Source of the DNA: a virus
Taxonomy: Duplodnaviria > Heunggongvirae > Uroviricota > Caudoviricetes
IMG/VR virus record: IMGVR_UViG_3300045988_154997
Coordinates: 1-64,000 of that record
Length of the DNA stretch: 64,000 nucleotides
Strand: one strand, 5' to 3'
How positions within the stretch are numbered: position 1 is the stretch's first letter; each line of letters begins with the position of its first letter. Position numbers and translations under genes: made by a program. The notes beneath the pieces were generated by a model. It was given only the letters and a program-made list of their open reading frames with translations. It did no database searches and was not told the origin of the DNA. Of this stretch, positions 26,507 to 64,000 are shown one piece after another.

Positions 26507-26508
26507 GA

Positions 26509-26781
26509 TCAGGCTCCTTTTGTTTCGTTGATTCGTTTTAAAGCGGCGGATTCGTCGAATACAATCGCATCGTGATTAAGGAGTCTGGATACACGAGCGA
26601 GGATTTTTACGACCTGCTCGCTGACTAATCCAAACTCGCGATCTGTCGCTTTCATTCCGGCAGCGCCCAGAATTGACGGCAGTGCGATGACAGCGTACTC
26701 ACCGTGATAAAAGACAATCTCTTTTGCCAGTTGGGTGGGGGTGGTTGTAGCGCCATTAATAATCGATTTAAGCATTAGCAA
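26509..26781 (-). CDS. hypothetical protein
   Basis: 90-aa ORF. Confidence 0.45.
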   Translation of the reverse strand: MLMLKSIINGATTTPTQLAKEIVFYHGEYAVIALPSILGAAGMKATDREFGLVSEQVVKILARVSRLLNHDAIVFDESAALKRINETKGA

Positions 26782-27719
26782 TACCTTTCGAATGGAAGAA
26801 CAAACACTTCAAGGTCTTCAAGGAACGAACGGAAATTCAGCTCGTAGCACAGTTGCTCGAATGCTTTCACGTCACGATTGCCTTTGATTGTTTCGATTTC
26901 GGTAGGCGGAAACTTCGTCTCAATCAGGTTCATTAGCGTGATGTTTCTCTTGAACGCTTCGAGCATTCGACAGCCTGTTTTCTCGTTGAAGGCATTCTTC
27001 GCTAGTTTGTTGAAGGCGGTCTTATGGCGTCCTTTGTCAACCACGATTGAGCCGTCGTTGATGCCGCGTACCATCGTTGCGACACTTCCCCATTCATGCA
27101 GCAGCTCTTTCGCACCGCCAGCACCAATGCCACCAACACCGCTAATGTTGTCCGATTTATCGCCTTGTAATGCTTTTGCTTCCAAAAATGCGCGAGGAGT
27201 AGCGAATCCTGTCAGCTCCGCAAATTGCTCAAAATTAACCTGCTTGTTTTTGGCGTCTTCACGCAGGCTTACCCAGCTTACGTTTTCACGAACTAACTGA
27301 AGCCAGTCGCTATCGCCTGTTAACAGATAGATGTGTTCAACGGTTGGCTGCGGTGCCATGCGGGATACCAGCAGCCCGGCCAGATCATCCGCTTCTGCAT
27401 CTTTTGCAATGAGTTGGGTAACTCCAAGCGCGGTCATCATTTTGAGGATGTATGGCTTCTGGATAGCAAAGCCTTCCTTCATCTTTTTCATATCAGGATC
27501 GTCGTCGCGATTTGCTTTGTAGTCCGGGTAAAAGTCGCGACGCTTGTCACTAAATCCATCCCAAAGAATCATAGGTCGGGCATGGAGGATGGAGGCATAA
27601 CGACGGACGTTCTTAACAAAGCCGAAAGCAGCCTGTACTTCCATTTCGCCGTTGTGCAATTTGTCAGATTGTTGGTGGTAATAACCCAGGCTATTGCCAT
27701 CTACGAAGAGATAATTCAC
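26775..27719 (-). CDS. 5'-3' exonuclease / flap endonuclease (FEN, T5 D15-like)
   Basis: YLFVDGNSLGYY N-terminal motif plus GDKSDNISGVGGIG helix-hairpin-helix region; start moved to GTG at 27719 (GGAAGG RBS). Confidence 0.8.
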   Translation of the reverse strand: MNYLFVDGNSLGYYHQQSDKLHNGEMEVQAAFGFVKNVRRYASILHARPMILWDGFSDKRRDFYPDYKANRDDDPDMKKMKEGFAIQKPYILKMMTALGVTQLIAKDAEADDLAGLLVSRMAPQPTVEHIYLLTGDSDWLQLVRENVSWVSLREDAKNKQVNFEQFAELTGFATPRAFLEAKALQGDKSDNISGVGGIGAGGAKELLHEWGSVATMVRGINDGSIVVDKGRHKTAFNKLAKNAFNEKTGCRMLEAFKRNITLMNLIETKFPPTEIETIKGNRDVKAFEQLCYELNFRSFLEDLEVFVLPFERYC

Positions 27720-27732
27720 CGGTACATTCCTT

Positions 27733-27764
27733 CCAAAAAGTAAGGCGTCCGTAGACGCCTTACT
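27733..27764 (-). terminator. hairpin (TAAGGCGTC-cgta-GACGCCTTA + TTTTT) between SSB-like and FEN genes
   Basis: Read directly. Confidence 0.5.
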
Positions 27765-27779
27765 GGTCACGTAATGGGA

Positions 27780-28808
27780 TTACAGAGAGTCCAGCTCTCT
27801 CAGTAGCTCATCCAGACCTTCATCTTCCGTCGCAGATGCGGTTGCTACAGATGTCGCTGCGACTGCTTCAGACTCTTTGACTGATACGGCAACGGCAGCG
27901 GAACTTGCCTCTGGTTTAAATTCAGTTTCAACGGCACGGAGGATTTCTTCATCAACCAGACTGGTTGGTTCAGAAGCCGGTGTGTGCGCGGTTGCTACAG
28001 CCGTCGCTCCTTCTGTATGACCAGTGACAGAGCCAAATCCAGGTAGTGCCGCAGCCGATGTTTTCGCGGTTGAGGAAATTGCTGGTGCAGATGCTGCGGC
28101 AGTTGGTGCAGCGATGCCAATCAGACGACCCATAGTGCGAACTGTCGACAGAAGACGAGTTTCATCAGCCTGATTTGCGTATGCGATCAGATCATGCTGG
28201 GTGTTCCAGAATTTATCTTCGATATCGCCTTTGTAGACTTTACGCTTAGGCGAGACGTCATATTTGGTATCGCGACCAGAGCCAGTACGTTTAATCAGGA
28301 ATGCGTAGCCTTCCTCTTTGCTCAGTGGATTGCCGATATCATCAGCGATGTCTTCGGTGATTGCTTTGCAGATATCATCGAATACAGTAGACGGCAGCTC
28401 GATTAACTGGCATTTCTCAGCATCTGCGAAATCCTCACGAGCAGAAAGAATGCCGTTGACCAGGTAGCGAGGAGTGGCACGCATTTGACCGATGCGTTCT
28501 TCCATTGCTTTGTTACCCTTGTGACGAGCGCGACCTTCCATCACCATTTCGCATAGCTGACAAGCGCGACCGTGAGTATGTTGCTCACAAATATAAGCGT
28601 TGGTTGCTTCTTTACCTTCCTCGTTCTGATACTTAACGTAGTGCATACCGAAAGTCTGGAAGAACTTACCGTTTGGGTCGTCTTTATTCGGGAAGATGCG
28701 GATATAGTTGACGCCGTCTTTTAAGCGAGTCAGATCAACGTTGTTACCACGTTTGGCGGCAATGTCTTCACGAGTTTTGTTAAGCAAATCAAGTAATGTC
28801 TTAGACAT
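27780..28808 (-). CDS. putative ssDNA-binding protein (gp32-like?)
   Basis: Cys/His cluster CEQHTHGRACQLC, Ala/Ser/Thr-rich linker and acidic C-terminal tail DEGLDELLRELDSL; function inferred from architecture and neighbourhood. Confidence 0.4.
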   Translation of the reverse strand: MSKTLLDLLNKTREDIAAKRGNNVDLTRLKDGVNYIRIFPNKDDPNGKFFQTFGMHYVKYQNEEGKEATNAYICEQHTHGRACQLCEMVMEGRARHKGNKAMEERIGQMRATPRYLVNGILSAREDFADAEKCQLIELPSTVFDDICKAITEDIADDIGNPLSKEEGYAFLIKRTGSGRDTKYDVSPKRKVYKGDIEDKFWNTQHDLIAYANQADETRLLSTVRTMGRLIGIAAPTAAASAPAISSTAKTSAAALPGFGSVTGHTEGATAVATAHTPASEPTSLVDEEILRAVETEFKPEASSAAVAVSVKESEAVAATSVATASATEDEGLDELLRELDSL

Positions 28809-39804: not shown

Positions 39805-40794
39805 TTGATTTACTTGAAAATGGCTGGTTTTATAGTATTGTCATGCGATCGCTGCAACAGGATAAGAAAAATGATAAAAGAGACACCGGAAGTCAACACG
39901 CTATCTGAGTTATTAGGGGCTACGCCTCCCAAACCTCAGCTAGTAGTGACGACTAAAGGTATTGATTTAGGTCTGGATATCTCCCTCGGAGATTGGAATA
40001 ACTCTTCATTATTATCACGACCTTCAGCTTTGTTAGCAATTGAGCATGGGGAAAATTTATTTGAACTCATGGATAAAGAGTTAGGTCTTGTTGGTATTAA
40101 TGAAGAAGGAGTGATCAAGTCAAACATCATTATCGAACTAGATCCCCATAAAACAACTATGAGAATATTAGGTAAAATTGCGGAAGCACTCATTGTTGAA
40201 GAATGTGAAAAAAACGCGAAACAAAATGAAAACTGGGCATTATTAGCAAAGAGATATACCCCTTTCACAGATAGTTTGTCTAATTATAAAGCTGTTGGGA
40301 CTGGACTCAACTATACGAAAATTAACTATCCTACTAAATATCAACCTAATGATACTCAACGGGACATTGTGTGGATAGACAAACGAGACCCACTTTCTCA
40401 ATTACTTATTTCTGCTCCAACGTCGAATTCAGGTATACAGGCTGGAATTCAAGTGAAGGTCAGTGCAAATGGTCTTAACTATCTATCACCAATGGATTTT
40501 TCTAGCAGAAGATATGAGGTCCCTATTGTTTACTTTGATTTAAATAATGATTTTTTTGAAATTCAGATGAAGATAGTGAACTCAGGAATTGATTCGGTTT
40601 ATGGAATGGATTATCACCGTGGTAGAAACATTTCTCCTGAAATACATGAAAAACTATGTGCATATTATAACCTTATATACTCCATTATCATTGGTGATAT
40701 GAAATTAGAGGCTCTGTTACTAAATGAAGAGGCACTGAAAGGGTATGTGACTGAGATTAAAGATAGACAAGGTAAAAGAATAATCGTGACGTGA
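39805..40794 (+). CDS. AT-rich hypothetical protein (accessory, unknown function)
   Basis: 329-aa plus-strand ORF immediately after the integrase; no motif recognised; true start may be an internal ATG. Confidence 0.45.
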   Translation: MIYLKMAGFIVLSCDRCNRIRKMIKETPEVNTLSELLGATPPKPQLVVTTKGIDLGLDISLGDWNNSSLLSRPSALLAIEHGENLFELMDKELGLVGINEEGVIKSNIIIELDPHKTTMRILGKIAEALIVEECEKNAKQNENWALLAKRYTPFTDSLSNYKAVGTGLNYTKINYPTKYQPNDTQRDIVWIDKRDPLSQLLISAPTSNSGIQAGIQVKVSANGLNYLSPMDFSSRRYEVPIVYFDLNNDFFEIQMKIVNSGIDSVYGMDYHRGRNISPEIHEKLCAYYNLIYSIIIGDMKLEALLLNEEALKGYVTEIKDRQGKRIIVT

Positions 40795-40986
40795 AAACCT
40801 AAACTGTAAAGGCAACAAAAGGTGAAATAATAACTCATTAAAAGCACATTGTGTGAAATTTTAATCTGATAATTCATATATCGGAAGGGATTTTAGATAT
40901 TTTTAATATTTATAACTGTCCTTTTCATAGATATAGTTGATTTGAGCGCACACTTTCATGTAAAAAGCCGCCTAAGCGGCTCTTAA

Positions 40987-41232
40987 TTATAATGTACTCA
41001 CCAGAGCGGCGAATTCCGTATAGCCACCGATAGATTCGCCATTTACGAACACCTGCGGTATGGTCTCCACCGGCTTGCCAACCAGGGCGCTCAATTTCTC
41101 TTTGTCTATCCCAGCAGACACAATATCGATGTATTCGTAATCGCCAAAACCGTGACCGTGAAGCTGCTTCGCCAGCTCGACCGCACGTTTGCAGTATGAG
41201 CAGTTATCTCGTCCATAGATAGTGATCGTCAT
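40987..41232 (-). CDS. Glutaredoxin (NrdH/Grx-like)
   Basis: 81 aa, active-site CSYC, thioredoxin-fold length. Confidence 0.75.
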   Translation of the reverse strand: MTITIYGRDNCSYCKRAVELAKQLHGHGFGDYEYIDIVSAGIDKEKLSALVGKPVETIPQVFVNGESIGGYTEFAALVSTL

Positions 41233-41521
41233 TGCTTTGCCTCGTTATGCGCTTCGCTGGGGAACGTGTAGCGGTTAGTGAAAGAGCTGAGGTGGTAGTG
41301 CTCGTGAATGTATGGATTTGACTTCTGCACCTGACGAGATGCGCGACGCGCATGTTTACATTTATTTCCCATATTGAGTCCTTTCAAGTGAGTATCCGAA
41401 AGAACTATACAGTTAACGTGCGTAAAAAGTAAGTGCTTACCTATCATTTATTGATAGAAGAATAGCCGCCTGTCGTGTGATACTATTTACAGAACTAAAC
41501 TGGCTTTCCACAAGGTGTAAA

Positions 41522-42343
41522 ATGACTATCCTTGAAAATCCTGATGCGAATGTTGAATCTGTTTATAGTCTTCATCCAACCACGTTGTTTCATTTTACAA
41601 AAAACGAAGATGCTTTCTATAGCATATTGGCTGAGAAATATTTTAAACCATTTCTTGCTCGCGAGGAAATAAGAGGAGTCGGGGGACGCAGGAGGTTTGC
41701 AGTACCAATGGTATCGTTTTGTGACATAAAACTATCACAAATCAGAGATCATAGCGGAAAATATGGAGAATTCGGTCTTGGGCTAACTAAGTCTTGGGCG
41801 GAAAAGAAAGGTCTACACCCAGTTCTATATATGAATAAGAGTAGTGAAATATTTTCTAAATACAATGCCAGAATTCGACTTATTAAAAATAAGTTGGTGC
41901 CGCTTTGGAAGGCTAGAGGAAATTTAGATACCAAAAACAGAATAGAGTTTGAGAAATTGAAAGCAGAATATTCTGATCTATATAATTTACTGCGTTATAT
42001 GAAAAATTACAGAGGCAAGCTAGAGCGAAAAGATAATAAAACAATAGAGAATTATATATATGCAGACGAGAAAGAGTGGCGTTATGTGCCAGCTCCTTTT
42101 ATTGGTGATTTATGGCCTAGTCTGAGTTTGGAGCGTGTTATCACTTCTGATGACAAAGCAAAAATTAGCTCAAAATTTTCAAAGTTTGGCATTGATTTTG
42201 AGTTCAATGATATAAAATATATACTTATACCTAAAGAACAACATATCCAAAAGCTAATTAACTTTCTCTCAGGTTTAGATGGATTTGAATCTTCAATTAT
42301 TAGCAAAATTCTGACCATGGATAAAGTAAAGCAAGATTTTTAA
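41522..42343 (+). CDS. DUF2971-like protein (candidate defence cassette, gene 1)
   Basis: RBS AAGGTG-N4-ATG at 41522; motifs LFHFTKNEDAFYSIL and HSGKYGEFGLGL resemble the LYKY.../...HKG.C.GF signatures seen in the clearer DUF2971 protein at 55116..55835; AT-rich. Confidence 0.45.
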   Translation: MTILENPDANVESVYSLHPTTLFHFTKNEDAFYSILAEKYFKPFLAREEIRGVGGRRRFAVPMVSFCDIKLSQIRDHSGKYGEFGLGLTKSWAEKKGLHPVLYMNKSSEIFSKYNARIRLIKNKLVPLWKARGNLDTKNRIEFEKLKAEYSDLYNLLRYMKNYRGKLERKDNKTIENYIYADEKEWRYVPAPFIGDLWPSLSLERVITSDDKAKISSKFSKFGIDFEFNDIKYILIPKEQHIQKLINFLSGLDGFESSIISKILTMDKVKQDF

Positions 42344-42369
42344 TTTTTGGTTTAACGGGAGCCTAATTA

Positions 42370-43581
42370 GTGTCAATATTTTTAAGCGAAAAGGAAATGC
42401 AAAATTGGATAATTGACAAATTATCTGATCAAGATGGATTATATAATTCAATCATCAATATTGATAAATTAAATGAATTTAATCCGAAAAGACCCGAAGA
42501 GAAAAAAATTAAGGAGAGTTATCAGTTTTGTTTAAAGAACATAACATTGTTACATTTAATGACAGATGATGAGAATATCTCAGCAACAAAATCTGAGATA
42601 TTAAGACCTGATGTCGTTGCTTATTCAACAGAGAATGAATCCTTAGTTCTTATTGAGTTAAAAAATTTTTCAACACCAACAAGGGAAGCTGGAACTGAGC
42701 TAGTGGCATATGCTGCGGAACTAAAAAGTTACTTGTCATACTTGTCTGATGGAGATATTACCAATGTACTTATATCACCTGACTGGCCACCTTTGGTTAG
42801 ACACTTTATTTTTAATATGATCGTGTGGCAGAAGAAAAACTTTCTATGTTTAGAACCTTGCTATGATTTACAAGGTAACGTATCACTTACTCCTTTAGAT
42901 ATTAATAAATTAGTTATTGCGGAAGAAGCACTCAAGTTCTCATTTCGTCATCTTGGCGGGTTTCATATATGTTTGTATGATGATGAAATGTATAATCAAC
43001 CGACTTCCACTTCTCGTTTACATTCGAAATTGAATGTTATTAAAGCCAGCATGGCAAAAATGTCCTCAGACGGTGAAAAGACTAATAGCCATGGGTTTGC
43101 TATTTTATGTAGAAATTTGAACGAGAGAACTTTAGCACCATATACGATTACTCTAGTTAATGTTTCTGCGTTTTCTTCCATAGAGCGATACTTTCATTCG
43201 CCACAAATATCCAATGCTTCTCAACTCCCTAGAATAGGACAAAAAATTTATGACATTTACACTCATTACCAACCATCAGGTTTTGGGGCATCAATGTCGA
43301 AAATTTACAATTCTGGGAGGGCATATTTAGAAAAAATTAATTGCAAGCCGCGGATCGAGGTTATAGACACCTGGGATGTATTGCAAGTACATACACATGC
43401 GCCTTATATGGAAATGGTTCATATTGAAACGTGGGGAGTTTTTAAAGAAAAATTGATTGAAGGTCTAAATGAATGTTATGAGGATGAATATTACACACCT
43501 GATTTTAACGATGTAGATTTTTGCATGGTGTGTATTGAATCCTTAATTGACCAGAATTATGAATTTATAAAACTTTTTTGA
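42370..43581 (+). CDS. PD-(D/E)xK nuclease-like protein (candidate defence cassette, gene 2)
   Basis: GTG start with GGGAG RBS; N-proximal RPDVVAYSTENESLVLIELK fits D...E-x-K restriction-endonuclease-like motif; rest unrecognised. Confidence 0.45.
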   Translation: MSIFLSEKEMQNWIIDKLSDQDGLYNSIINIDKLNEFNPKRPEEKKIKESYQFCLKNITLLHLMTDDENISATKSEILRPDVVAYSTENESLVLIELKNFSTPTREAGTELVAYAAELKSYLSYLSDGDITNVLISPDWPPLVRHFIFNMIVWQKKNFLCLEPCYDLQGNVSLTPLDINKLVIAEEALKFSFRHLGGFHICLYDDEMYNQPTSTSRLHSKLNVIKASMAKMSSDGEKTNSHGFAILCRNLNERTLAPYTITLVNVSAFSSIERYFHSPQISNASQLPRIGQKIYDIYTHYQPSGFGASMSKIYNSGRAYLEKINCKPRIEVIDTWDVLQVHTHAPYMEMVHIETWGVFKEKLIEGLNECYEDEYYTPDFNDVDFCMVCIESLIDQNYEFIKLF

Positions 43582-43584
43582 AGA

Positions 43585-43608
43585 AAAGGGGCCGAAGCCC
43601 CTTTGAAT
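43585..43608. terminator. bidirectional hairpin terminator (GGGGC-cgaa-GCCCC) closing both the plus-strand cassette and the minus-strand tRNA operon
   Basis: Read directly; T-run TTTTCTTCAAAAAA on minus strand, weaker T-run on plus. Confidence 0.6.
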
Positions 43609-43679
43609 ATTGCGCTGAAAAAAAGTGTTGCTAGGATGTTAGCAAGCTATGGTTAAGAACGTCTGCCGTAATTGTCAAT

Positions 43680-43757
43680 CACAGCGTTGAGCGGTCTGGT
43701 TTATGTTAGCGGAGTCTTAATCGAGTTGATTAAAAGGCCAAACCGCTCAACGCTGTG
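43680..43757. repeat. perfect 16-bp inverted repeat (CACAGCGTTGAGCGGT / ACCGCTCAACGCTGTG) with 46-nt loop, abutting the tRNA-Ser 3' end
   Basis: Read directly. Confidence 0.6.
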
Positions 43758-43759
43758 TC

Positions 43760-43846
43760 TGGCGGAGAGTAATGGAATCGAACCATCATCGTTTGCACAA
43801 TGGGACGATTTTCAAGACCGCTTGAGCACCATGCTCCCTACTCTCC
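43760..43846 (-). tRNA. tRNA-Ser (anticodon UGA), type II (long variable arm)
   Basis: Acceptor GGAGAGT/ACTCTCC, discriminator G, encoded CCA; anticodon loop CTTGAAA; T-arm GATGG-TTCGATT-CCATT; D-arm non-canonical (A8), so needs tRNAscan confirmation. Confidence 0.6.
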
Positions 43847-44070
43847 GGCCGTTGTGGTGGCCGGTACTGAATCTCCGGCATACGGTGCAGCCAATTAGGA
43901 CTACGGACGATCACCGCTCGCGAAAGGGAAGATTTGCGGCCGCATTTCCCTAACATCCAAGAAAGCTATCGCATCAGTCTGCGAATCCACCACAACGGTA
44001 AGATCACTACCTTTCGACCAGTCATTGTGCACATGAACGACGATTAACCGTAATGATCTTATCGTTGTAT

Positions 44071-44146
44071 TGGTGCCGGTTAACGGACTCGAACCGCTGA
44101 CATCCTGCTTACAAGGCAGGCGCTCTACCAACTGAGCTAAACCGGC
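44071..44146 (-). tRNA. tRNA-Thr (anticodon UGU)
   Basis: GCCGGTT-TA-GCTC-AGTTGGTA-GAGC-G-CCTGC-CTTGTAA-GCAGG-ATGTC-AGCGG-TTCGAGT-CCGTT-AACCGGC-A-CCA; canonical cloverleaf, 76 nt. Confidence 0.85.
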
Positions 44147-44150
44147 AATT

Positions 44151-44237
44151 TGGTGGGGAGTGATGGAGTCGAACCACCCGAGTCGCAATGACAGTAGATT
44201 TACAGTCTGTCCCGCTACCTCTACGGACTAACTCCCC
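44151..44237 (-). tRNA. tRNA-Tyr (anticodon GUA), type II
   Basis: Acceptor GGGGAGT/ACTCCCC, discriminator A, CCA; D-stem GTCC/GGAC; anticodon loop CTGTAAA; T-arm GGTGG-TTCGACT-CCATC; overall similar to E. coli tRNA-Tyr. Confidence 0.75.
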
Positions 44238-44242
44238 TAAAT

Positions 44243-44317
44243 TGGCGATGGTGGGTGGATTCGAACCACCGACCAGTTGGTTAACAGCCAACTGCTCTAC
44301 CGCTGAGCTACACCATC
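44243..44317 (-). tRNA. tRNA-Asn (anticodon GUU)
   Basis: GATGGTG-TA-GCTC-AGCGGTA-GAGC-A-GTTGG-CTGTTAA-CCAAC-TGGTC-GGTGG-TTCGAAT-CCACC-CACCATC-G-CCA; canonical, 75 nt. Confidence 0.85.
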
Positions 44318-56907: not shown

Positions 56908-57041
56908 TGGAGAGTTCCCTTTGCGTATATAATTATCGTCTGAAACAACTTGTTTTCTTATATGTGATATAGCCTAAATGCCTACGGCTGTGGTGTAAAG
57001 GTTTAATGATAGGTACATAGATTTGGTAAGGACTTAATAAC

Positions 57042-57065
57042 AAAAAACCCGCCGTAGCGGGTTTA
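57042..57065 (-). terminator. Rho-independent terminator (CCCGC-tacg-GCGGG + TTTTTTG on minus strand)
   Basis: Read directly; 3' of gene 57070..57846. Confidence 0.7.
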
Positions 57066-57069
57066 GGAA

Positions 57070-57846
57070 TTAGTGGTTGGTAGACCTGGCATCAAATGTT
57101 GTAACGCCCACTTCAATGTGGCGGTCTTCTTTGGAGATGATGGTGAGAATCTGACTAGATGGGTCTATGCTGACAGCCATAGGGTTCCAGTGACGTAACT
57201 GAGCCTCGCTGTTCAATAGCAGCGCATCCCACGGTTTGACGCCATTCTGCCCAATACCACCTTCAACAAGGACATCTATAAATTCTTTATTTAAATTGTC
57301 ATAGATTTGGACACGCCCGACCAGAAGCATACCGACCGCCCAAATTCTGGCACCGTAAACCGTCTGATGGTCATCACATACCACATGGTCATGCCAATTG
57401 AGAAGGAAATTGTAAACTCTTCTAGCAAGTCCCTTTTGTTCCTTTGAAGGGGTTACAAATGCCCCTTTGATCTGGACACCAAGGTGAGAGCCTTTTTGTG
57501 AGCGAAACTGGAAACGTTTGTAGACGAACCTGGCAATCTGAATGCCGTCATCATCTTCTTGTTCATCACCAACTAACTCACGAACACTATGAACTATCTC
57601 TGCTTCTGAATACCCCTGCTCGTCAAGATCCATTGCATGTTCTTGAAGCCAATCTGCATCAGGGTCGCCTACAAATGATACTGTCAAACAGTAATCATAA
57701 TTAGATCCCGTCAAGGACCATTCTGTGAGCCGTAAAACAGAAAAATCAGAGTTAACCATGTAGCCAACTCTGATTTTCTCTCTTGCTTCACATTCAGGGA
57801 AATCAGACAGAACTTTTGAATACTCTGCTATGAATGATGGTGACAT
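57070..57846 (-). CDS. hypothetical protein
   Basis: 258-aa ORF, start adjacent to stop of 57847..58245. Confidence 0.5.
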   Translation of the reverse strand: MSPSFIAEYSKVLSDFPECEAREKIRVGYMVNSDFSVLRLTEWSLTGSNYDYCLTVSFVGDPDADWLQEHAMDLDEQGYSEAEIVHSVRELVGDEQEDDDGIQIARFVYKRFQFRSQKGSHLGVQIKGAFVTPSKEQKGLARRVYNFLLNWHDHVVCDDHQTVYGARIWAVGMLLVGRVQIYDNLNKEFIDVLVEGGIGQNGVKPWDALLLNSEAQLRHWNPMAVSIDPSSQILTIISKEDRHIEVGVTTFDARSTNH

Positions 57847-58245
57847 TTAGTTCGCAAGCCGCATATCCGTAGATGAATCCAGTTTCGCTATTTTAACATC
57901 TACGCGGTATTTATCTTTGATAAATTTAGCTATTTTGCTTTCAATCTCATAGAAAGCATCCTGTTCACAACGCACAACATCGGGAAACTGTTTTTCTGGC
58001 TTAACAAGAAAACGTAACCGATTGTTGAGCACCATCATTTCTGCAAACAATTTGATGGTAAACTTGCCTTCTTCAACGTCACTTTTAAGGTTAACGATGA
58101 AACGCTGATCCTTAAGCATACCCGGTTTGTTCATTTCACGAATTTGGAGCGAGTCATTCCAATGCCGCAACGGAACCGATGCGATCATCTTGGTACAGTC
58201 TCTTATCGTCTGAATAGAACGAGATGCGTTAAGTGCAGTATGCAT
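57847..58245 (-). CDS. hypothetical protein
   Basis: 132-aa ORF. Confidence 0.5.
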   Translation of the reverse strand: MHTALNASRSIQTIRDCTKMIASVPLRHWNDSLQIREMNKPGMLKDQRFIVNLKSDVEEGKFTIKLFAEMMVLNNRLRFLVKPEKQFPDVVRCEQDAFYEIESKIAKFIKDKYRVDVKIAKLDSSTDMRLAN

Positions 58246-58419
58246 GTTTCCACCTTAGCCGGTAATAACTTTATGTCATAGCGGCGACCTTGTCGGTTTA
58301 GAGGCTACGAGTATGCGTCGATTTATTAAAACAAGGTATGATTTACTTGACATCCATGCTTCAAATCTACCTTGTGCTCTAATAATATGCAAATTTTATG
58401 TTAGAAAATTCCGCTTTTA

Positions 58420-58650
58420 TTATGGCACTTTTCTGCCCCATCCACACAATCGCTCCCCTATCATATTGTGAAAAAGTACTTCCCTTTCAGTCTCTTCGGT
58501 CATGAGATCATCACGGCTGATGTATAGCGGTGTAGCCGCATCGCAGAAAAGCACACCAGAGGATTGAGGCTTAATCACGCAACCACTTATTGTGCAACTC
58601 ATGATGAACAGTAGAAGCATCTTTGCGCCGTAACTCATCAAGTGTTTCAT
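58420..58650 (-). CDS. o-spanin (Rz1-like outer-membrane lipoprotein), partly embedded in the i-spanin gene in another frame
   Basis: Signal peptide + lipobox MLLLFIMSCTISGC; overlaps 58571..58822 out of frame; exact start uncertain. Confidence 0.4.
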   Translation of the reverse strand: MKHLMSYGAKMLLLFIMSCTISGCVIKPQSSGVLFCDAATPLYISRDDLMTEETEREVLFHNMIGERLCGWGRKVP

Positions 58651-58822
58651 TTTTGACATCCACTGTGCTTTGAAGTCGTTTCCTGTCTTCCTGTTTTGCC
58701 TTCTCTTCCATTGCTCGTCGCGCCGCATTTCCGCCCATCGTGTAAGCGCCGACCAGAACGAAAAGAACGGCAGCCAGCGTAATCAAAGCAACTTTTAGCT
58801 TTGTCATCAGGCTGCCTAGCAT
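58571..58822 (-). CDS. i-spanin (Rz-like)
   Basis: N-terminal TM anchor LKVALITLAAVLFVLVGAY followed by charged coiled region. Confidence 0.5.
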   Translation of the reverse strand: MLGSLMTKLKVALITLAAVLFVLVGAYTMGGNAARRAMEEKAKQEDRKRLQSTVDVKNETLDELRRKDASTVHHELHNKWLRD

Positions 58823-58823
58823 A

Positions 58824-59543
58824 TTAGACCATCCCTTTCTGGTGTCTTCTTACCTGCGACCAGGCGATAAATCCAGCCACAACAATAGTGGCAATACCGA
58901 AGATGATGCGTACTGTATCCCCACTAGAGATATGACCTTGTGCTTTATCCATAGCAGCGGAAACCTGCGGCATAACATCGGCCAGCTGCGCCAGACCAAT
59001 ACCTGCTGTAACAGTTGCGCCTGCTGTTTCTTTAGTTACAGGAACAGCCTTCACGGTTTTCACCGGCTTAACGACGCCAGCTCGACGCAGACCTTCCTCA
59101 ATAACTTCTGCCGCATACCAGGTGTTCAGCGTTTTTAGCGGACCTCGCCCATTCTCATGGCGAATGATTGCCTCAACCAAAGGTCGAAGAATGTCGTAAT
59201 CATGCAGATCGATGATCATGTCTGCGGTTACACCAACGGCTTTAGACACCTCATTAATGTAGGCGTCAGTGTTGTTTTCATTCGGCGGTGCCCAACGTTC
59301 AATAACTTCACGAATGGTATCGATACTTGAGCCGTCTTTTGCGCGACGTTTGTCGTGGTAGGTAATTAGAGTCACCGCCAGCGCACGAATCCCCCAAACA
59401 GGGTCTTTAAACGTGCAAAAGCGCGGTTCGTCTGGATTCGCAACCAGACCTTGCCACGGTGATCCTTTATCAAGATTACCGGGGTTATTATTACGAATGC
59501 CTCTCGGAGTCTTCATCCTTGATCTCCTGTTATTGCAGTCCAT
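58824..59543 (-). CDS. putative endolysin / peptidoglycan hydrolase
   Basis: Position between holin-like gene and spanins; N-terminal GIRNNNPGNL motif which I associate with phage cell-wall hydrolases (unverified); C-terminal hydrophobic segment IIFGIATIVVAGFIAW. Confidence 0.4.
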   Translation of the reverse strand: MDCNNRRSRMKTPRGIRNNNPGNLDKGSPWQGLVANPDEPRFCTFKDPVWGIRALAVTLITYHDKRRAKDGSSIDTIREVIERWAPPNENNTDAYINEVSKAVGVTADMIIDLHDYDILRPLVEAIIRHENGRGPLKTLNTWYAAEVIEEGLRRAGVVKPVKTVKAVPVTKETAGATVTAGIGLAQLADVMPQVSAAMDKAQGHISSGDTVRIIFGIATIVVAGFIAWSQVRRHQKGMV

Positions 59544-59853
59544 TTTTTACGCCATACGCGGCTAACCCCAAAAGCAGTGCAGTAATAAAGAACGACGTTA
59601 TTTTAGAAACAATGCCGCCAAAGAACCCACTGGAGATGGAATCTAACCGGTTAAGGAGTTTGTCCAGATTGGAGTGTTGAATACTATGTTGCGCCGGGGT
59701 CATATCACCAAAGTAGGTTTTCAGCTGATCATTGACCTCCTGGCCAATTTCTTCACGTAGCTCTTTACCTAATTTGCCAACAACCTCCCGAGCAACGATC
59801 GCGGCAATACGCTCAACTTGCTCTGTTGTAACGCTCGCCATCTCGTTCGACAT
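59530..59853 (-). CDS. holin-like small membrane protein
   Basis: Start set at ATG 59853 (GGAGG RBS); single C-terminal hydrophobic segment; first gene of lysis cluster. Confidence 0.3.
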   Translation of the reverse strand: MSNEMASVTTEQVERIAAIVAREVVGKLGKELREEIGQEVNDQLKTYFGDMTPAQHSIQHSNLDKLLNRLDSISSGFFGGIVSKITSFFITALLLGLAAYGVKNGLQ

Positions 59854-59934
59854 GTTTTCCTCCATGAAAAGTCAAATCGGGATGGCGGATTTATATCACA
59901 TTTCACCCTTTTGTTGTAGGTGTGTACTTACCTA

Positions 59935-60168
59935 TCATTCAGCATTGCAACGAACTGATGAGAAAGCACCTACTCCTACCCATCGCCAGTTATAGATGCT
60001 ACCCGCTTTGTATAAGGTATAGTCGTTCACTTTTTTAACAGCATATATGGGTATGACTGTCTCCTGTCCACCAATGATAGCCTCACCGTAACATATAGGT
60101 GTCGGCAATTTCTGGCAGCCAGTAAGAGAGAGAACAACAGCTATTGTTAGAAATAATCTTTTCATCAT
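59935..60168 (-). CDS. small lipoprotein (candidate superinfection-exclusion/receptor-masking protein)
   Basis: 77 aa, signal peptide + lipobox LTGC; located directly downstream of tail-fibre genes. Confidence 0.5.
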   Translation of the reverse strand: MMKRLFLTIAVVLSLTGCQKLPTPICYGEAIIGGQETVIPIYAVKKVNDYTLYKAGSIYNWRWVGVGAFSSVRCNAE

Positions 60169-60175
60169 TTACTCA

Positions 60176-60784
60176 TCAGTTATACAGATTTCTATTTATT
60201 ACCGGTACTCTGCCATTTACGCTAAAACTATGGCCGCCATTAAGTTGGTTTACGAATATCGAGCTAACAGTATTTCCATATGCCGCATATCCATAAACCA
60301 TTGTCATGGCCCCGCCCGGTACTGGAACCGCGAACACATTTGCATATGTTGGGATTATCGCTGGCGGGTAATCAAAAACATGCCCTCCAGAACTGTTCCA
60401 CTCCGTATTATTAAGAAAGGTAAATGAAAGTGGGATATTTGCCGTATTATAGATCTCCTCTCCTCGCGCATTGAAAAAACTCATGCCCCAAGTTTCTTTT
60501 TTGGCTATACCTTTCGAAAATACGTATATCGTGGCACTAGAATCGCTACCCTGACCTCCGAAACTGTAAATCACCTGGTTGTTACGCACTATTCTGTTGG
60601 CTATTAATGAAACAGCTTTCGAATAGGCAACAAAAATCATCGGTGAACGATCTGGAGATATTTGGGTGTTAAACTCTGTCCCGCCAGACAAAGAAACAAC
60701 CTGCTTTCTCTGAAAAACGATAGGAGACAAAGAAGGAGACATCCAGACCTTCCCGTCAGATCGATATATCTTGCTTCCGTACAT
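60176..60784 (-). CDS. hypothetical protein, possibly tail-fibre-associated
   Basis: 202-aa Gly/Ser/Asn-rich ORF downstream of tail fibre. Confidence 0.45.
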   Translation of the reverse strand: MYGSKIYRSDGKVWMSPSLSPIVFQRKQVVSLSGGTEFNTQISPDRSPMIFVAYSKAVSLIANRIVRNNQVIYSFGGQGSDSSATIYVFSKGIAKKETWGMSFFNARGEEIYNTANIPLSFTFLNNTEWNSSGGHVFDYPPAIIPTYANVFAVPVPGGAMTMVYGYAAYGNTVSSIFVNQLNGGHSFSVNGRVPVINRNLYN

Positions 60785-61038
60785 TATTTTTGAAAAACCA
60801 ATATGTTTAAATTGCCACTAGCTCCAGACCATGAAATGGTATTTCCAGAAACCGTAAGACTTGTGTATTTCCCATTGGTTACGTCCATTATGTAATAGTC
60901 GATTCCCAATCCCGCCTCAACCTCATATGTTCTACTTCCTGAACCAGAGGGAGTAAAATAATCGAGGTAATAAACAGGGGCCAACGCATCGACCATCTCC
61001 TGTCTTGATGGCGACCAAACCTGTGCACCATAGCTCAT
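60784..61038 (-). CDS. hypothetical protein, possibly tail-fibre-associated
   Basis: 84-aa ORF, stop/start overlap with 60176..60784. Confidence 0.4.
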   Translation of the reverse strand: MSYGAQVWSPSRQEMVDALAPVYYLDYFTPSGSGSRTYEVEAGLGIDYYIMDVTNGKYTSLTVSGNTISWSGASGNLNILVFQK

Positions 61039-61098
61039 AAATATATCCTTATACTTTTAAGCAGGGGCTGGTTTAGTTCCAGCCCCGATTGAAGTTGT

Positions 61099-63909
61099 TT
61101 ATTCTTTAGGTGAATTTAACTTCGTTTCAAGCTCCTCAACCCTTTTGGTCAATTGCTGAATATGATGAATGAGTGGTACAACCAAACGCTCATACATCAC
61201 TCCTTCAGCGACCATACCATTTGAGGAAATATCTCCTGGAGAATCATTATTTGTTGGTTCACGCCAATGGACATATTGCGGGGCAATCTCACCAACCTCT
61301 TCAGCAATAAGGCCGTAATACCCCCAATCCTTTCGGTCACCTCGACAAATTGAACGATACCAAACAGGTCTTAATGACAAAAGTTCATCAGCATATCGAT
61401 CTTGTAATGTTTCAATATCCTTTTTATAGCGCCTTGAAGATGTTGAACGCCAAACTGTATTGATACCTGGGTTTGGATCAATGTACATATTGGCACCGCT
61501 AGTAGTTGTGCCAATATCCCATATAGCAAACCCTCCACTACCGCCTGATTTGACAACCAGTGTTTCAGCAATAATATCCAGGTTGCCACTATAGCCTGTC
61601 AGTGATGATCTGCTTGCATAGGAACTTAGAAGGTTTGTTACCTCTGTTTTCGTATAAGCATTAAGGTTAGCCGCAGTCAAAGTAATATCGGCAGAGCCAT
61701 CAAACGCCACACCAGCAATTTTCCTTGCTGTCTGCAATTTTGTGGCTGTTGCGGCATTACCAGTAGTATTCTGATTACCGGTTGTATTCACACCAGGGAT
61801 TGAATCCTTAGCGGTATATACCTGCGCCCACGCTGACCATGCCGCATCAGTGGTATCTCTTCTGGAGCGAATGAAAACCGGCGCATGTGCACCGCTCGTA
61901 CCACTCCAGCCAATAAGCAACTCGCCCTCACCAGCAGCACTCGCACCTTTCATGTGCAATACGTTGCCATACGTGGTCGGGTAGCTATTGTTGTACGCCT
62001 CGTACATTTGAATGCCAGCAGTACCTTGAGTAGAACCGCTTAAAGCCGTAACTCGACCACGAGAAACCAATGTATTAATATTGATATCACCTGAACCATC
62101 AAACTTAACACCATTGATGTTTCTCGCTGTTTGCAACTTCGTAGCTGTTGAAGCATTGCCATTCAAGCTACCATTTACGCCACCAGTAACATTTAGTCCA
62201 TTACCAATAGACACAACACCGCTGCTATTATTAATTATAATCGGTCGCAAACTGTTCCATGAACCTAACGTATCTCCTGATGCTGTTAGCATGAAATATG
62301 TGCTGCCGCCGTCATTACGGATAAAGAACCCGTAGTTACCGTAAGCAATGCGGAAACCATTTGCATATTTTGAAACGATCTCACCAGAAGACGTTAACCC
62401 TCCAGATAATGTGCCACCTGAAAGCGGTAATGCTCCTACATCAGAAGCTGTTGGTTTGTTTCTAGTGTTATAAGAACGACGCCAGCCTGGTGCATAATCA
62501 CTTCCATTGTACACATAAATAAATTCCGCATTGTTAACACCACCATGACCCGATGTTGTTGTCGTTGTAACACGAATAGTGTAGTGGCTTGTTGCCTTAT
62601 TACTAAACACCTCAATCACGGAACCAGATAGATCGATCCTACCGCAACCAGTGTCGTCTATATAATTATTGTTGGCGTAAGTCCATGAGCACCGTGCGAT
62701 CCAATGTTTGTTTGTAAATGCCCCCTGATTATTTAGCCAAGTTATAAATTGAGCAGTCGTAAATGCCGTTCCGTTACCACTATTTAACCATCCAGCGGCA
62801 GCGGTTGGCGCGTTTATATCAGCCGGCTGAGGCATAAATCCAGTCGTGTAAACCTGCTCCCAACCACTTTCAAAACCATAGCCATCTCTTGAGGAACGGT
62901 AGAACAGACCACCATTTTTATAGTGAGCTTTAATTTGAAGCGTACGGCAACTACCTACACCGGTATAAAAGTTGGCAAGAATATAACTGTCGCCTGTTCT
63001 AGTTACATTGTAAGCACCAGATTCAGCATTCCACGGCACGCCACCATCAGCATCCGCATATGACCCTGTTGCCCTTCTTGCGAAAGCGGCAACATGCGCA
63101 GCGGTTAAAGTGATATCAGTAGAACCATCAAATGGAACACCGGATATTTTTCTTGCAGTCTGAAGTTTTGTAGCAGTTGCAGCATTACCAGTGGTGTTCT
63201 GATTACCCGTAGTGTTTACACCTGGAAGGTTGATATTTGCAGAACCGTCGAAACCAACTCCACCGATAGATCTTGCCGTCTGCAATTTCGTTGCTGTACT
63301 TGCATTACCATTTAATGTTCCGGTGATCCCACCAGTAACAGACAACGGACCTGAAACTGTTCCTCCGGTTGTTGGCAGTGCTCCAATATCTAACGGCGTC
63401 GGTTTCTGATGTGTGCTATACATCGTATAAACAACACCATCGGTAACGCTGGAAGGCTTACTCGCTGAATATGTTGGCGATGTATAAATAGAAACTGACG
63501 CATTTGCAGTACAATCCCAATGGATATTTACACTCGTCGCATAATTGCCAATTTCAACGTAAATATCATATGTATCGCCGGATGTGTTGATCCAGGCGAA
63601 ATTCGTTAATCCGACAGCTGTACGCTTCCACAAAGCACCTGTAATCCCTTTGGGGTTTCCATTGCCTGCTCGTAGAACCAGTTCTGAAATGCCTGCCTGA
63701 TGTGGGGAGCCGACGTTGTAACCAGCGCCACCAATCAATGCGATGTAAACGATGGAACTCGCTTGTGGCATTGTAACAGTAGCCAGTTTGAACCACCCGG
63801 CCCCGCCAGAGAAAGACATCGTTATTGAATTTAAAGTACCAATATCTTTCGGCGTTAATGTGATATCCGCAGTCAGTGCTTTCCCGTTAATTTTTCGGTT
63901 AGATGGCAC
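61099..63909 (-). CDS. tail fibre protein with phage tail-fibre repeats and C-terminal intramolecular chaperone (S74-like) domain
   Basis: At least 4 copies of GNASTATKLQTAR.I.GV.FDGS.DI.L; C-terminal ...SSRRYKKDIETL... autoproteolysis-type motif; N-terminus may extend beyond the ORF-track start. Confidence 0.8.
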   Translation of the reverse strand: MPSNRKINGKALTADITLTPKDIGTLNSITMSFSGGAGWFKLATVTMPQASSIVYIALIGGAGYNVGSPHQAGISELVLRAGNGNPKGITGALWKRTAVGLTNFAWINTSGDTYDIYVEIGNYATSVNIHWDCTANASVSIYTSPTYSASKPSSVTDGVVYTMYSTHQKPTPLDIGALPTTGGTVSGPLSVTGGITGTLNGNASTATKLQTARSIGGVGFDGSANINLPGVNTTGNQNTTGNAATATKLQTARKISGVPFDGSTDITLTAAHVAAFARRATGSYADADGGVPWNAESGAYNVTRTGDSYILANFYTGVGSCRTLQIKAHYKNGGLFYRSSRDGYGFESGWEQVYTTGFMPQPADINAPTAAAGWLNSGNGTAFTTAQFITWLNNQGAFTNKHWIARCSWTYANNNYIDDTGCGRIDLSGSVIEVFSNKATSHYTIRVTTTTTSGHGGVNNAEFIYVYNGSDYAPGWRRSYNTRNKPTASDVGALPLSGGTLSGGLTSSGEIVSKYANGFRIAYGNYGFFIRNDGGSTYFMLTASGDTLGSWNSLRPIIINNSSGVVSIGNGLNVTGGVNGSLNGNASTATKLQTARNINGVKFDGSGDININTLVSRGRVTALSGSTQGTAGIQMYEAYNNSYPTTYGNVLHMKGASAAGEGELLIGWSGTSGAHAPVFIRSRRDTTDAAWSAWAQVYTAKDSIPGVNTTGNQNTTGNAATATKLQTARKIAGVAFDGSADITLTAANLNAYTKTEVTNLLSSYASRSSLTGYSGNLDIIAETLVVKSGGSGGFAIWDIGTTTSGANMYIDPNPGINTVWRSTSSRRYKKDIETLQDRYADELLSLRPVWYRSICRGDRKDWGYYGLIAEEVGEIAPQYVHWREPTNNDSPGDISSNGMVAEGVMYERLVVPLIHHIQQLTKRVEELETKLNSPKE

Positions 63910-64000
63910 CCTGCTGTTCGCATTGTCATTGACTACTTTAACTGCTTTTGGCGTTGCGGCCAGCGATTCACTGGTGCTGTCGACAGCACTGCTAAGTTTC

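Follow-up and report, generated by a model that had tools for sequence, protein, structure and literature searches.

Positions 61099 to 64000 come from an SSU5-like Escherichia coli phage-plasmid and make up the distal two-thirds of its gene for a side (lateral) tail fibre. Very probably, its product is a mosaic SSU5-like fibre built of linker-joined modules, ends in a self-cleaving Peptidase_S74 (S74) chaperone, and carries in its linkers the joints at which modules are exchanged between phages. The fibre is an uncharacterised member of well-known kinds, the mosaic side tail fibre and the S74 chaperone.

The fibre gene and its host element

The gene lies on the minus strand of the 64,000-nucleotide window (the whole stretch of DNA analysed), where a single long open reading frame (ORF) with its 3' end at 61099 supplies the last 966 codons and the stop of a 1432-codon ORF. 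Its 5' end is outside the window. The first-pass annotation had placed a GTG start at 63909; this start arises only from the cut at the edge of the window, because the frame stays open up to 63999, where it reads ...KLSSAVDSTSESLAATPKAVKVVNDNANSRVPSNRK, and because the ORF spans 1432 codons, from an ATG after AGGAG, in the 112.6-kb plasmid pEc2-51408 (NZ_CP104116; 100% identical). The plasmid copy (L001:5604-9902) is free of internal stops, and its RefSeq annotation gives the fibre as 1304, versus the 1432-codon ORF. The window as a whole is nearly identical to pEc2-51408, and phage-plasmids of 112-156 kb match its DNA at 100%.

The identification of the gene as a tail-fibre gene was borne out by matches to PHROG tail-fibre families at E = 0, by its place downstream of the TipJ gene (which ends at 5511 in L001, the fibre ORF beginning at 5604) and by synteny with the fibre locus of Salmonella phage SSU5. 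A scan of the whole fibre against NCBIfam gave no match. DNA matching part of the gene was present in 1219 of 5426 complete genomes, on plasmids and in chromosomal prophages, and was near full length in 22.

Modular organization

At its N-terminus the 1432-residue chain, presumably trimeric, has an anchor followed by an Ala/Ser-rich rod, both beyond the window; a string of modules then leads to a 75-residue tip and a 113-residue chaperone. The modules have relatives among parts of lambdoid Stf, Mu S/S' and T4 gp34/gp37, and four linker repeats lie between them. All features below are on the minus strand and are given from the proximal end.

A conserved fibre motif, LSSAVDSTSESLAATPKAVKVVNDNANSR (63910..63996), aligns to Mu S residues 122-156 (8ju3, 5yvq) and connects the proximal Ala/Ser-rich rod to the distal modules. 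It is followed by the globular module M1 (63352..63909; phrog_21552, 1e-183), which ends in the linker KPTPLDIGALPTTGGTVS and has about 93% DNA identity with the stf genes of chromosomal lambdoid prophages. Linker repeats R1 (GNASTATKLQTARSIGGVGFDGSANI; 63233..63310) and R2 (GNAATATKLQTARKISGVPFDGSTDI; 63113..63190) separate M1 from module B (62794..63087), a gp37_C-type module homologous to Mu S' residues 324-421 and to domain 3 of PDB 8ju3, which scored 24.3 bits against Pfam gp37_C (PF12604; cut-off 22.5). Module A (62440..62820) is homologous to Mu S' residues 201-326 (8ju3 domain 2, i-Evalue 3.7e-35). Next comes a domain of the Gp34_trimer type, known from T4 gp34 and Mu S (62233..62532; Pfam PF21446, 1e-29), with PDB matches 5yvq, 4uxe, 5nxf, 5nxh and 9x3r. 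Repeats R3 (GNASTATKLQTARNINGVKFDGSGDI; 62084..62161) and R4 (GNAATATKLQTARKIAGVAFDGSADI; 61685..61762) flank the 88-residue module M4 (61801..62064). No match was found when the isolated repeats, M1 and M4 were scanned against Pfam.

Module exchange among relatives

Relatives of the fibre vary both in repeat number and by recombination, as the first-pass annotation had anticipated: they carry 2 to 5 repeat copies, whole modules are exchanged among them, and their junctions are enriched at the repeats. The common alleles of 1383-1385 aa lack module B and have a third tandem repeat in its place. In the CMS-2020a fibre, a diverged second copy of M1 lies in the distal half, and in the Cyrano and L003 fibres an A-like domain forms the extreme C-terminus. 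Alleles P0003-P0008 have a different N-terminus, which carries PF08400. Phage phi458, which has M1 to R2 in common with the fibre, encodes a Pin invertase. At the distal end, the alternative tip cassettes found at the locus are S74 alone, S74 with a Gp38 adhesin, a Tfa-dependent tip, and a tip with no S74 match. The Gp38 adhesin (PF05268, 1.9e-70) belongs to the CMS-2020a cassette; at the same position, L009 has a gene annotated as "receptor-recognizing protein".

The points at which homology to relatives ends indicate that the repeats are preferred in-register joints for module exchange across different phages and prophages. Eight of 20 distinct end points fell within the four 78-nt repeat cores, which make up 10.8% of the sequence (P = 7e-4), and 13 of 20 fell within broader linker motifs (P = 1e-5), a broad set chosen after the data had been seen. 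Low-identity BLAST alignments tend to begin and end at conserved islands, which inflates such counts; when only matches of at least 90% identity were used, 3-4 of 13 junctions lay in repeat cores, a weak enrichment (P = 0.16-0.04). Homology to CMS-2020a stops inside R3, and several end points lie inside R4. Three junctions inspected base by base were in register and directly followed the KLQTAR codons; in R2, the junctions with L002/Cyrano and with phi458 both fall immediately past these codons.

A somewhat unlikely alternative is that the repeats have no mechanistic role in exchange. Illegitimate or microhomology joints would then arise anywhere, only chimeras joined at neutral linkers would survive, and the enrichment would reflect selection together with alignments that end at conserved islands. 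The weakness of the enrichment among high-identity junctions fits this explanation, as do the sharp junctions outside the repeats (62870/62846, 62591, 61875 and 61617), of which that at 61617 passes from about 98% identity to none within a few bases, and others at domain boundaries such as ...WEQVYTTG. Against it, the three inspected repeat junctions are in register and the rest of each unit remains alignable at the usual between-copy level, as is typical when a crossover falls within a unit that can be aligned. Further, between alleles the R2 copies have identical stretches as long as 32 nt, and experiments have demonstrated relaxed homologous recombination mediated by phages in stf/tfa for lambda and defective prophages (PMC3945230). 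We favour the repeats as joints for exchange between phages.

An invertible-segment switch of the Gin/Cin/Min/Pin kind was also considered and rejected: the inverted repeats at positions 57000-64000 were short, weak and unconvincing (16-22 nt, 73-84% complementary), and the annotation shows no invertase beside the fibre locus.

DNA similarity of the linker repeats

A regular-expression search and a DNA repeat tool served to locate the repeats; a BLASTP comparison of the fibre with itself gave no off-diagonal hits after filtering. Each consists of the 13-residue motif GNA(S/A)TATKLQTAR followed by I-GV-FDGS-(N/D)I; at least four copies had been noted on first reading, and the fibre holds exactly four. 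The linker repeat (26-40 residues) resembles the Pfam "phage tail fibre repeat 2" (PF03406). The precomputed Pfam list for partial proteins 97-100% identical to the fibre includes PF03406.19; our own hmmscan did not report PF03406 for the whole ORF or for the isolated repeats, the latter even at E ≤ 10. A literature search for the motif string KLQTAR returned nothing relevant.

At the DNA level, the four cores are 72-79% identical to a reference copy. The two DNA-similar segments that had been reported near 61690..61800 and 63090..63230 correspond to extended units of R4 (61670-61797) and R2 (63098-63225), which are 79% identical across 128 nt. This similarity had been read as a substrate for recombinational shuffling of the receptor-binding region, a reading that did not withstand comparison with codon degeneracy. 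When the repeat peptides were back-translated with the element's own codon usage, the expected DNA identity between copies was 0.61-0.74, versus an observed 0.63-0.78 (p = 0.06-0.35). Even the best pair used the same codon at only 19 of 40 identical residues, and the longest exact in-register match between copies was at most 12 nt. The repeats are thus conserved as protein, whereas at the DNA level they have diverged as far as codon degeneracy permits.

Ongoing homologous recombination between the repeats within the gene, giving deletions, duplications and shuffling of the receptor-binding region, is therefore improbable. The 128-nt pair, the range of copy number in relatives and the element's own RecA-family recombinase, gp32-type single-stranded DNA-binding protein and 5'-3' exonuclease all speak for it. 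However, Redβ is reported to need a pairing segment of at least 23-27 bp and RecA one of at least 31-34 bp (PMC3945230), and with similarity at the codon-degeneracy level and exact matches this short, the copies are poor substrates for intragenic recombination. Moreover, every full-length allele with 94% or more identity to the window fibre has four copies. In the five-copy alleles, the extra tandem copy is only 57-76% identical in DNA to its neighbours and is therefore old; a recent tandem duplication as the origin of the fifth repeat was rejected on the same grounds. Since repeat DNA has drifted this far, the repeats do not drive present-day rearrangement within the gene.

C-terminal chaperone and predicted cleavage

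Assignment of the C-terminal 113 residues (61102..61440, minus strand) to the Peptidase_S74 intramolecular chaperones is supported by Pfam score, conserved Ser and Lys residues, a profile match and fold. The domain matched PF13884 with 27.8 bits in the whole ORF and 30.3 bits in a C-terminal fragment (cut-off 22). The SSRRYKKDIE motif (61411-61440), from which a chaperone-type domain had been proposed at the outset, is the opening of this match.

The predicted scissile bond is Thr-Ser (61438..61443, minus strand), T1319-S1320 when counted along the 1432-aa protein and T823-S824 in the 936-aa numbering of the first-pass annotation, with S1320 the first residue of the Pfam match. In the sequence T-S-S-R-R-Y-K, encoded at 61423-61443, the Lys at +5 from the nucleophile Ser (61423..61425, minus strand; invariant K86 of alignment A1) is the predicted general base. 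Across 27 homologues, the T, Y, K and E of RSTSS-RYK--E are invariant and its serines are conserved in at least 90%. In T5 pb1 the scissile bond is Thr1263-Ser1264 and the Lys is Lys1269 (PMC4690869), and the T|S…K spacing in the fibre is identical.

A profile of the 27 homologues matched 8hqz_d, the L-shaped (T5-type) tail fibre, at E = 3.1e-5, and phmmer with the C-terminal 233 residues gave only a weak PDB match (E = 0.024). In an AlphaFold monomer model of a 193-aa fragment, the domain begins at residue 81, and block-mean pLDDT was 75-90 over residues 91-190. The best Foldseek matches of the model were 7dc3 (MyRF ICA; E = 1e-4, TMt 0.56), 3gud and 3gw6, all of them solved IMC/ICA domains, and no unrelated fold was matched at E < 1. 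These matches are moderate (TM 0.41-0.56), and the monomer model thus suggests the IMC fold with moderate support.

By its sequence, the chaperone is predicted to cleave itself. It would nucleate folding of the trimer from the C-terminus and then, after trimerisation, release itself by cutting between Thr and Ser (61441/61440), with Ser as nucleophile and the Lys at +5 as base. It is very improbable that the S74-like domain is instead kept on the mature fibre, or that the fibre is non-functional in the element, as the modest margin of the Pfam score over its threshold and the IS-disrupted fibre genes of some plasmids (H99) might suggest, given that the catalytic Ser, the Lys and the surrounding motif are (nearly) invariant, that the ORF is intact over 1432 codons and conserved (95-100% identity) in 21 complete genomes of E. 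coli, and that the domain is cleaved in every cited characterised member, namely T5 pb1, K1F endosialidase, the phi29/GA-1 appendage and MyRF (PMC4690869; PMC8326128).

Distal tip and downstream genes

Self-cleavage would leave a mature distal tip of 75 residues, predicted to run from LNAYTKTEV to VWRST (61441..61665, minus strand), which is probably the receptor-contacting end after processing. The tip is 48-69% identical to the tips of tip-plus-chaperone proteins of about 231 aa from Escherichia phage contigs of about 50 kb, and its confidence in the monomer model is low. L003/Cyrano-type alleles diverge sharply from 61617 onward. The mature fibre would mediate primary, reversible adsorption, with a surface glycan as the probable target.

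The counterparts of modules A and B form the distal part of Mu S', and an A-type domain is the terminal tip in Cyrano-type alleles; here both modules lie inside the shaft, upstream of a further tip, and could still be binding sites. In that case the fibre would be multivalent, a "beads-on-a-string" adhesin for more than one surface structure, its tips added successively at the linker repeats; we regard this as a long shot.

A self-cleaving chaperone would account for the lack of a separate tail-fibre assembly gene after the fibre gene, and none of the five downstream ORFs matched the tail-fibre assembly (Tfa) family in PHROGs. Downstream ORFs matched phrog_557, phrog_425 and Cor, and the two directly after the fibre had no significant match in Pfam. 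The Gp38 adhesin gene is absent from the window. The downstream proteins of 84 and 202 aa were considered as Gp38-like tip-specific adhesins or chaperones and rejected, the same trio with Cor being present in SSU5 beside a fibre that has a separate adhesin. The 202-aa protein, without significant match in Pfam or NCBIfam, also occurs at low identity in Escherichia phages of about 50 kb and in Stx phages.

Significance of the module map

SSU5-like phage-plasmids are common in E. coli, and the fibre locus is an obvious determinant of host range. According to published work, little is understood of the host range of these elements, some of which bear resistance genes (PMC9600943). The analysis of the fibre reveals no new mechanism; its useful product is a module map that gives the exact joints, the predicted maturation site and the alternative tip cassettes at one locus. 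The fibre shares modules with lambdoid prophages, with Mu, with fibres of the T4 type and with the tip-plus-chaperone proteins of the roughly 50-kb Escherichia phages, and the map could guide fibre engineering or host-range prediction.

Comparison with known systems

A close parallel for the C-terminus is T5 pb1 (4UW7/4UW8, 8hqz), likewise a long lateral siphovirus fibre with a C-terminal chaperone (about 113-133 residues) and without a separate chaperone gene. Both have a scissile Thr|Ser with a Lys five residues on, and the T5-type fibre was the sole solved structure found by sequence profile. However, the receptor-binding "bullet" of T5 has about 290 residues, whereas about 75 residues lie between the last repeat and the cleavage site here, and the shaft modules are unrelated, sequence similarity being confined to the chaperone (E = 3e-5). 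K1F endosialidase, the GA-1/phi29 appendage and MyRF ICA (3gw6, 3gud, 7dc3) belong to the same C-terminal fold family, Pfam Peptidase_S74, but their domains follow a tailspike, triple-beta-helix bodies or a eukaryotic transcription factor, at 10-21% identity.

With lambdoid stf genes (lambda Stf, Rac StfR, prophage stf-tfa), the fibre shares M1-R1-R2-B at about 93% DNA identity, the linker repeat and a position after a J-type tip protein, stf following gpJ-lom. Two lambdoid features are missing from this allele, the PF08400 N-terminus and a tip that depends on a Tfa encoded directly downstream. Chromosomal relatives carry tfa. The plasmid copy, translated over 1427 aa (from L001:5619, five codons inside the 1432-codon ORF), gave no match to PF08400. 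As in Mu S/S' (5yvq, 8ju3), an N-terminal SE-LAAT-KAVK motif is present, A and B match the distal domains of S' (whole-chain E = 1e-60), and the Gp34_trimer-type module matches S. Unlike in Mu, the order of A and B is reversed, both are internal rather than terminal, and there is no invertible segment, invertase or U/U' chaperone. Matches to Gp34_trimer (PF21446) and gp37_C (PF12604) link the fibre to T4 gp34 and gp37. Unlike T2/S16-type phages, the window has no Gp38 adhesin gene after the S74-bearing fibre.

SSU5 (SSU5_020-025), Cyrano and CMS-2020a have the same gene order, in which a J-type protein and the fibre are followed by the proteins of 84 aa and about 200 aa and Cor, and then by lysis genes. 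They differ at the tip: in SSU5 the fibre is followed by a separate 178-aa gene of the adhesin/chaperone type, CMS-2020a combines another S74 tip with a Gp38 adhesin, and Cyrano ends in an A-type domain without a Pfam S74 match. The fibre follows an evolutionary principle reportedly described earlier (Sandmeier in 1994, Haggård-Ljungquist in 1992), by which unrelated phages exchange modules at short conserved motifs within their fibre genes. In T-even phages, the exchange motifs are His boxes or glycine islands. The fibre described here differs from those examples both in its joint motif and in its host element, a phage-plasmid.

Extent and genomic setting of the fibre gene

The ORF listing of the window contains a minus-strand ORF of 936 codons with a GTG start (61099-63909). 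Upstream of this GTG, the frame continues without a stop to the window edge (translation ...KLSSAVDSTSESLAATPKAVKVVNDNANSRVPSNRK...), indicating that the fibre gene is truncated by the window. Thus, the long ORF reported in the first-pass annotation was correct, but its start at 63909 is an artefact of the window edge. Several E. coli plasmids, 112-156 kb in size, carry these 2902 nt of the gene at 100% identity. In the corresponding locus of plasmid pEc2-51408 (NZ_CP104116; L001), the frame is open from L001:5577, and an ATG at 5604, preceded by AGGAG, begins an ORF of 1432 codons with zero internal stops, of which the window carries the last 966. The RefSeq start in NZ_CP104116 is internal, yielding 1304 aa, and is probably placed 128 codons too far downstream (region L001:5577-5988). 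Bearing on the true start, a 1427-aa homologue with 99% identity (P0001) has the N-terminus MWYREGTITF.

The plasmid gene order, a TipJ-family gene followed by the fibre, an 84-aa ORF, a 202-aa ORF, cor and lysis genes, was the same as that around the fibre of Salmonella phage SSU5. The remainder of the window also matched pEc2-51408, including RepB, a RecA-family recombinase, a gp32-type SSB, DNA ligase and a tRNA cluster. The element is an SSU5-like phage-plasmid, with this gene encoding its side (lateral) tail fibre. The tail-fibre identity proposed earlier was supported by the position after the TipJ-family gene, the SSU5 gene order and matches to PHROG tail-fibre families.

Downstream of the fibre, all on the minus strand, lie the 84-aa ORF (60784-61038; phrog_557), the 202-aa ORF (60176-60784; phrog_425) and the Cor exclusion lipoprotein gene (59935-60168). 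This trio (59935-61038) is conserved and also follows the fibre of SSU5 and its separate adhesin-type gene. It is absent from the related loci Cyrano and L003, and in another (L009) it is replaced by a gene annotated 'receptor-recognizing protein'. Distant homologues of the 202-aa protein (24-32% identity) were found in ~50-kb Escherichia phages and Stx phages. Downstream of cor, a lysis cassette (58420-59865, minus strand) comprises a holin-like ORF of 111 aa (59530-59865), an endolysin-like ORF of 239 aa (58824-59543) that carries the annotation 'membrane protein' and, laid out like an Rz/Rz1 spanin pair, two small ORFs that overlap each other (58571-58822 and 58420-58728). Elsewhere in the window, a low-GC stretch (40001-44317; GC 0.365-0.376 versus about 0.45 elsewhere), flanked by four tRNA genes (Asn, Tyr, Thr and Ser; 43760-44317), holds an AbiGi-family gene (41522-42343) and an adjoining hypothetical gene, and may be an acquired defence island.

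Modules and linker repeats of the fibre

Pfam searches of the fibre detected Gp34_trimer (1e-29), gp37_C (24.3 bits; cut-off, 22.5) and Peptidase_S74 (S74; 27.8 bits; cut-off, 22). A PDB sequence search matched the Mu S/S' fusion 8ju3 (whole-chain E-value, 1e-60), as well as Mu S (5yvq) and T4 gp34 (4uxe, 5nxf, 5nxh and 9x3r). In N- to C-terminal order, the modules, all on the minus strand, are an N-terminal joint motif (63910-63996), M1 (63352-63909), the R1-R2 segment (63094-63351), B (62794-63087), A (62440-62820), Gp34_trimer (62233-62532), the R3 segment (62065-62196), M4 (61801-62064), the R4 segment (61666-61800), the tip, or predicted mature distal end (61441-61665), and the chaperone (61102-61440). 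Residues 305-402 of the 966-aa translation match 8ju3 chain residues 324-421, and residues 394-520 match 201-326. These two Mu S' domains (62440-63087, minus strand) are therefore in reverse order relative to Mu, a sign of module shuffling, and are internal rather than terminal. It is very doubtful that they are still active binding sites that would make the fibre multivalent.

The linker motif GNA(S/A)TATKLQTAR followed by I-GV-FDGS-(N/D)I occurs in exactly four copies, with 78-nt cores on the minus strand at 63233-63310 (R1), 63113-63190 (R2), 62084-62161 (R3) and 61685-61762 (R4), corresponding to residues 569, 609, 952 and 1085 in the 1304-aa numbering; no further copies were found in the part of the fibre beyond the window. 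R2 and R4 have an extended unit in common, IPGVNTTGNQNTTGNAATATKLQTARKI-GV-FDGS-DITLTAA, whose DNA forms a 128-nt pair (63098-63225 and 61670-61797) with 79% identity. The first-pass annotation had noted at least four copies and two DNA-similar segments, as found here, and had proposed these segments as a substrate for recombinational shuffling of the receptor-binding region. When the repeat peptides were back-translated 5000 times with the element's own codon usage, the expected DNA identity was 0.61-0.74, versus 0.63-0.78 observed (one-sided p, 0.06-0.35). The best repeat pair was identical at 40 of 43 residues, only 19 of which used the same codon, and the longest in-register exact match between any pair was 12 nt. 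Minimal efficient pairing segments are 31-34 bp for RecA and 23-27 bp for Redβ (PMC3945230). Thus, the DNA-level similarity adds no information beyond the protein repeat, and with identity at the level of codon degeneracy and such short exact matches, the copies are old, are kept by protein-level selection and are poor substrates for homologous recombination inside the gene, contrary to that proposal.

Allelic variation and probable exchange joints

The 120 best homologues of the fibre carried 2, 3, 4 or 5 motif copies, with lengths of 1237-1668 aa, and their identity profiles fell into a few recurrent architectures. In a common allele of 1383-1385 aa, module B is replaced by a third tandem repeat and the A module is divergent; in another group, all sequence past about residue 1060 is replaced. 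The CMS-2020a fibre is about 95% identical as far as mid-R3, beyond which come an additional M1-like domain and an S74 domain different from the one here, and a Gp38-type adhesin gene (PF05268, 1.9e-70) occupies the position of the 84-aa/202-aa/cor trio. In Cyrano and L003, similarity breaks off abruptly at 61617, and the fibre terminates in an A-type domain for which Pfam gives no S74 match. M1-R1-R2-B is shared, at about 93% DNA identity, with chromosomal lambdoid prophages in classical gpJ-lom-stf-tfa loci, and the tip and chaperone also occur as separate ~231-aa proteins on ~50-kb Escherichia phage contigs (48-57% identity). Repeat-number variation and swapped modules among relatives were thus present. 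A related plasmid, NZ_CP025894, has its fibre gene interrupted by IS2. Phage phi458 carries M1-R2 at 95% identity in a fibre locus with a Pin-type DNA invertase and IS1, indicating that the same proximal modules are also used in an apparent invertible fibre-switch locus.

Searches of phages, plasmids and E. coli genomes yielded 20 distinct internal homology end points, a count inflated by the tendency of low-identity alignments to stop at conserved islands. The 78-nt cores of the four repeats cover 10.8% of the 2902 nt and contained eight of these end points (binomial P = 7e-4). A wider linker set, drawn up once the data had been seen and comprising DVGALPLSGGTLSGGL and the repeats with their flanking sequence, covers 19.8% and contained 13 (P = 1e-5). 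With matches of at least 90% identity only, 3-4 of 13 end points fell in repeat cores (P = 0.16-0.04). The enrichment of joints in repeats is real but modest, and the earlier expectation that relatives vary at the repeats agrees with both these joints and the copy numbers.

Three junctions were read base by base, those of L002 (a related fibre locus) and phi458 in R2 and that of CMS-2020a in R3. In each, high identity extended through the KLQTAR codons, and the rest of the unit continued in register at the usual between-copy identity, as expected after a crossover within an alignable repeat unit. A less probable, though not negligible, explanation for part of the joint pattern is that selection retained foldable chimeras with their joints in linkers; in its favour, sharp junctions also exist outside the repeats, for example those at 61617, after AYTKTEVTNLLSSY and where module B ends. 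The element encodes a RecA-family recombinase (25433-26506), a 5'-3' exonuclease (26775-27719) and a T4 gp32-family ssDNA-binding protein (27780-28808) on the minus strand (25433-28808), and this toolkit could take part in fibre-module exchange.

The C-terminal chaperone domain

The Pfam S74 match begins exactly at the first serine of SSRRYKKDIE, with a threonine immediately before it. In an alignment of 27 homologues of the last 193 residues, the R, T, Y, K and E of RSTSS-RYK--E were invariant and the serines were present in at least 90%. The lysine lies five residues after the serine, the same spacing as in T5 pb1, which is cleaved between Thr1263 and Ser1264, with Lys1269 activating the serine (PMC4690869). 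A profile of this alignment matched one solved structure, 8hqz_d, a T5-type L-shaped tail fibre (E = 3.1e-5). For most of the chaperone domain (residues 91-190), the block-mean pLDDT of the AlphaFold monomer was 75-90, and the tip was poorly modelled. The best Foldseek matches of the chaperone model were the MyRF ICA domain (7dc3, E = 1e-4) and the GA-1 (3gud) and endosialidase (3gw6) chaperones, with no unrelated fold at E < 1. These findings bear out the chaperone-like domain recognised in the first-pass annotation. By analogy with the family, the last 113 residues would fold the trimer and then self-cleave at 61441/61440, leaving a mature chain ending ...VWRST. No tail-fibre assembly gene was found by PHROG and Pfam among the ORFs downstream of the fibre.

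Comparison with known systems

In P2, P1/p15B and T-even phages, fibre genes were reported in the 1990s to swap modules at short conserved motifs (Haggård-Ljungquist, 1992; Sandmeier, 1992, 1994; Tétart, 1998; as cited in PMC3945230 and PMC12032242). Relaxed homologous recombination has been demonstrated experimentally for stf/tfa (PMC3945230). Lateral-fibre loci of E. coli siphoviruses are highly variable and may encode the fibre as a single polypeptide or as several. Unlike lambda Stf, this fibre has neither a PF08400 N-terminal domain nor a tfa gene, ruling out a canonical lambda Stf; the Gp38 adhesin carried by some alleles is also absent. The gene is not part of an invertible switch: the inverted repeats in 57000-64000 are short and weak, and no invertase is annotated beside the locus. 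T5 pb1, K1F endosialidase, phi29/GA-1 appendages and MyRF are textbook cases of a self-cleaving chaperone (PMC4690869; PMC8326128). Since the chaperone and module exchange are both known from other phages, the fibre gene is an uncharacterised member of kinds already known.
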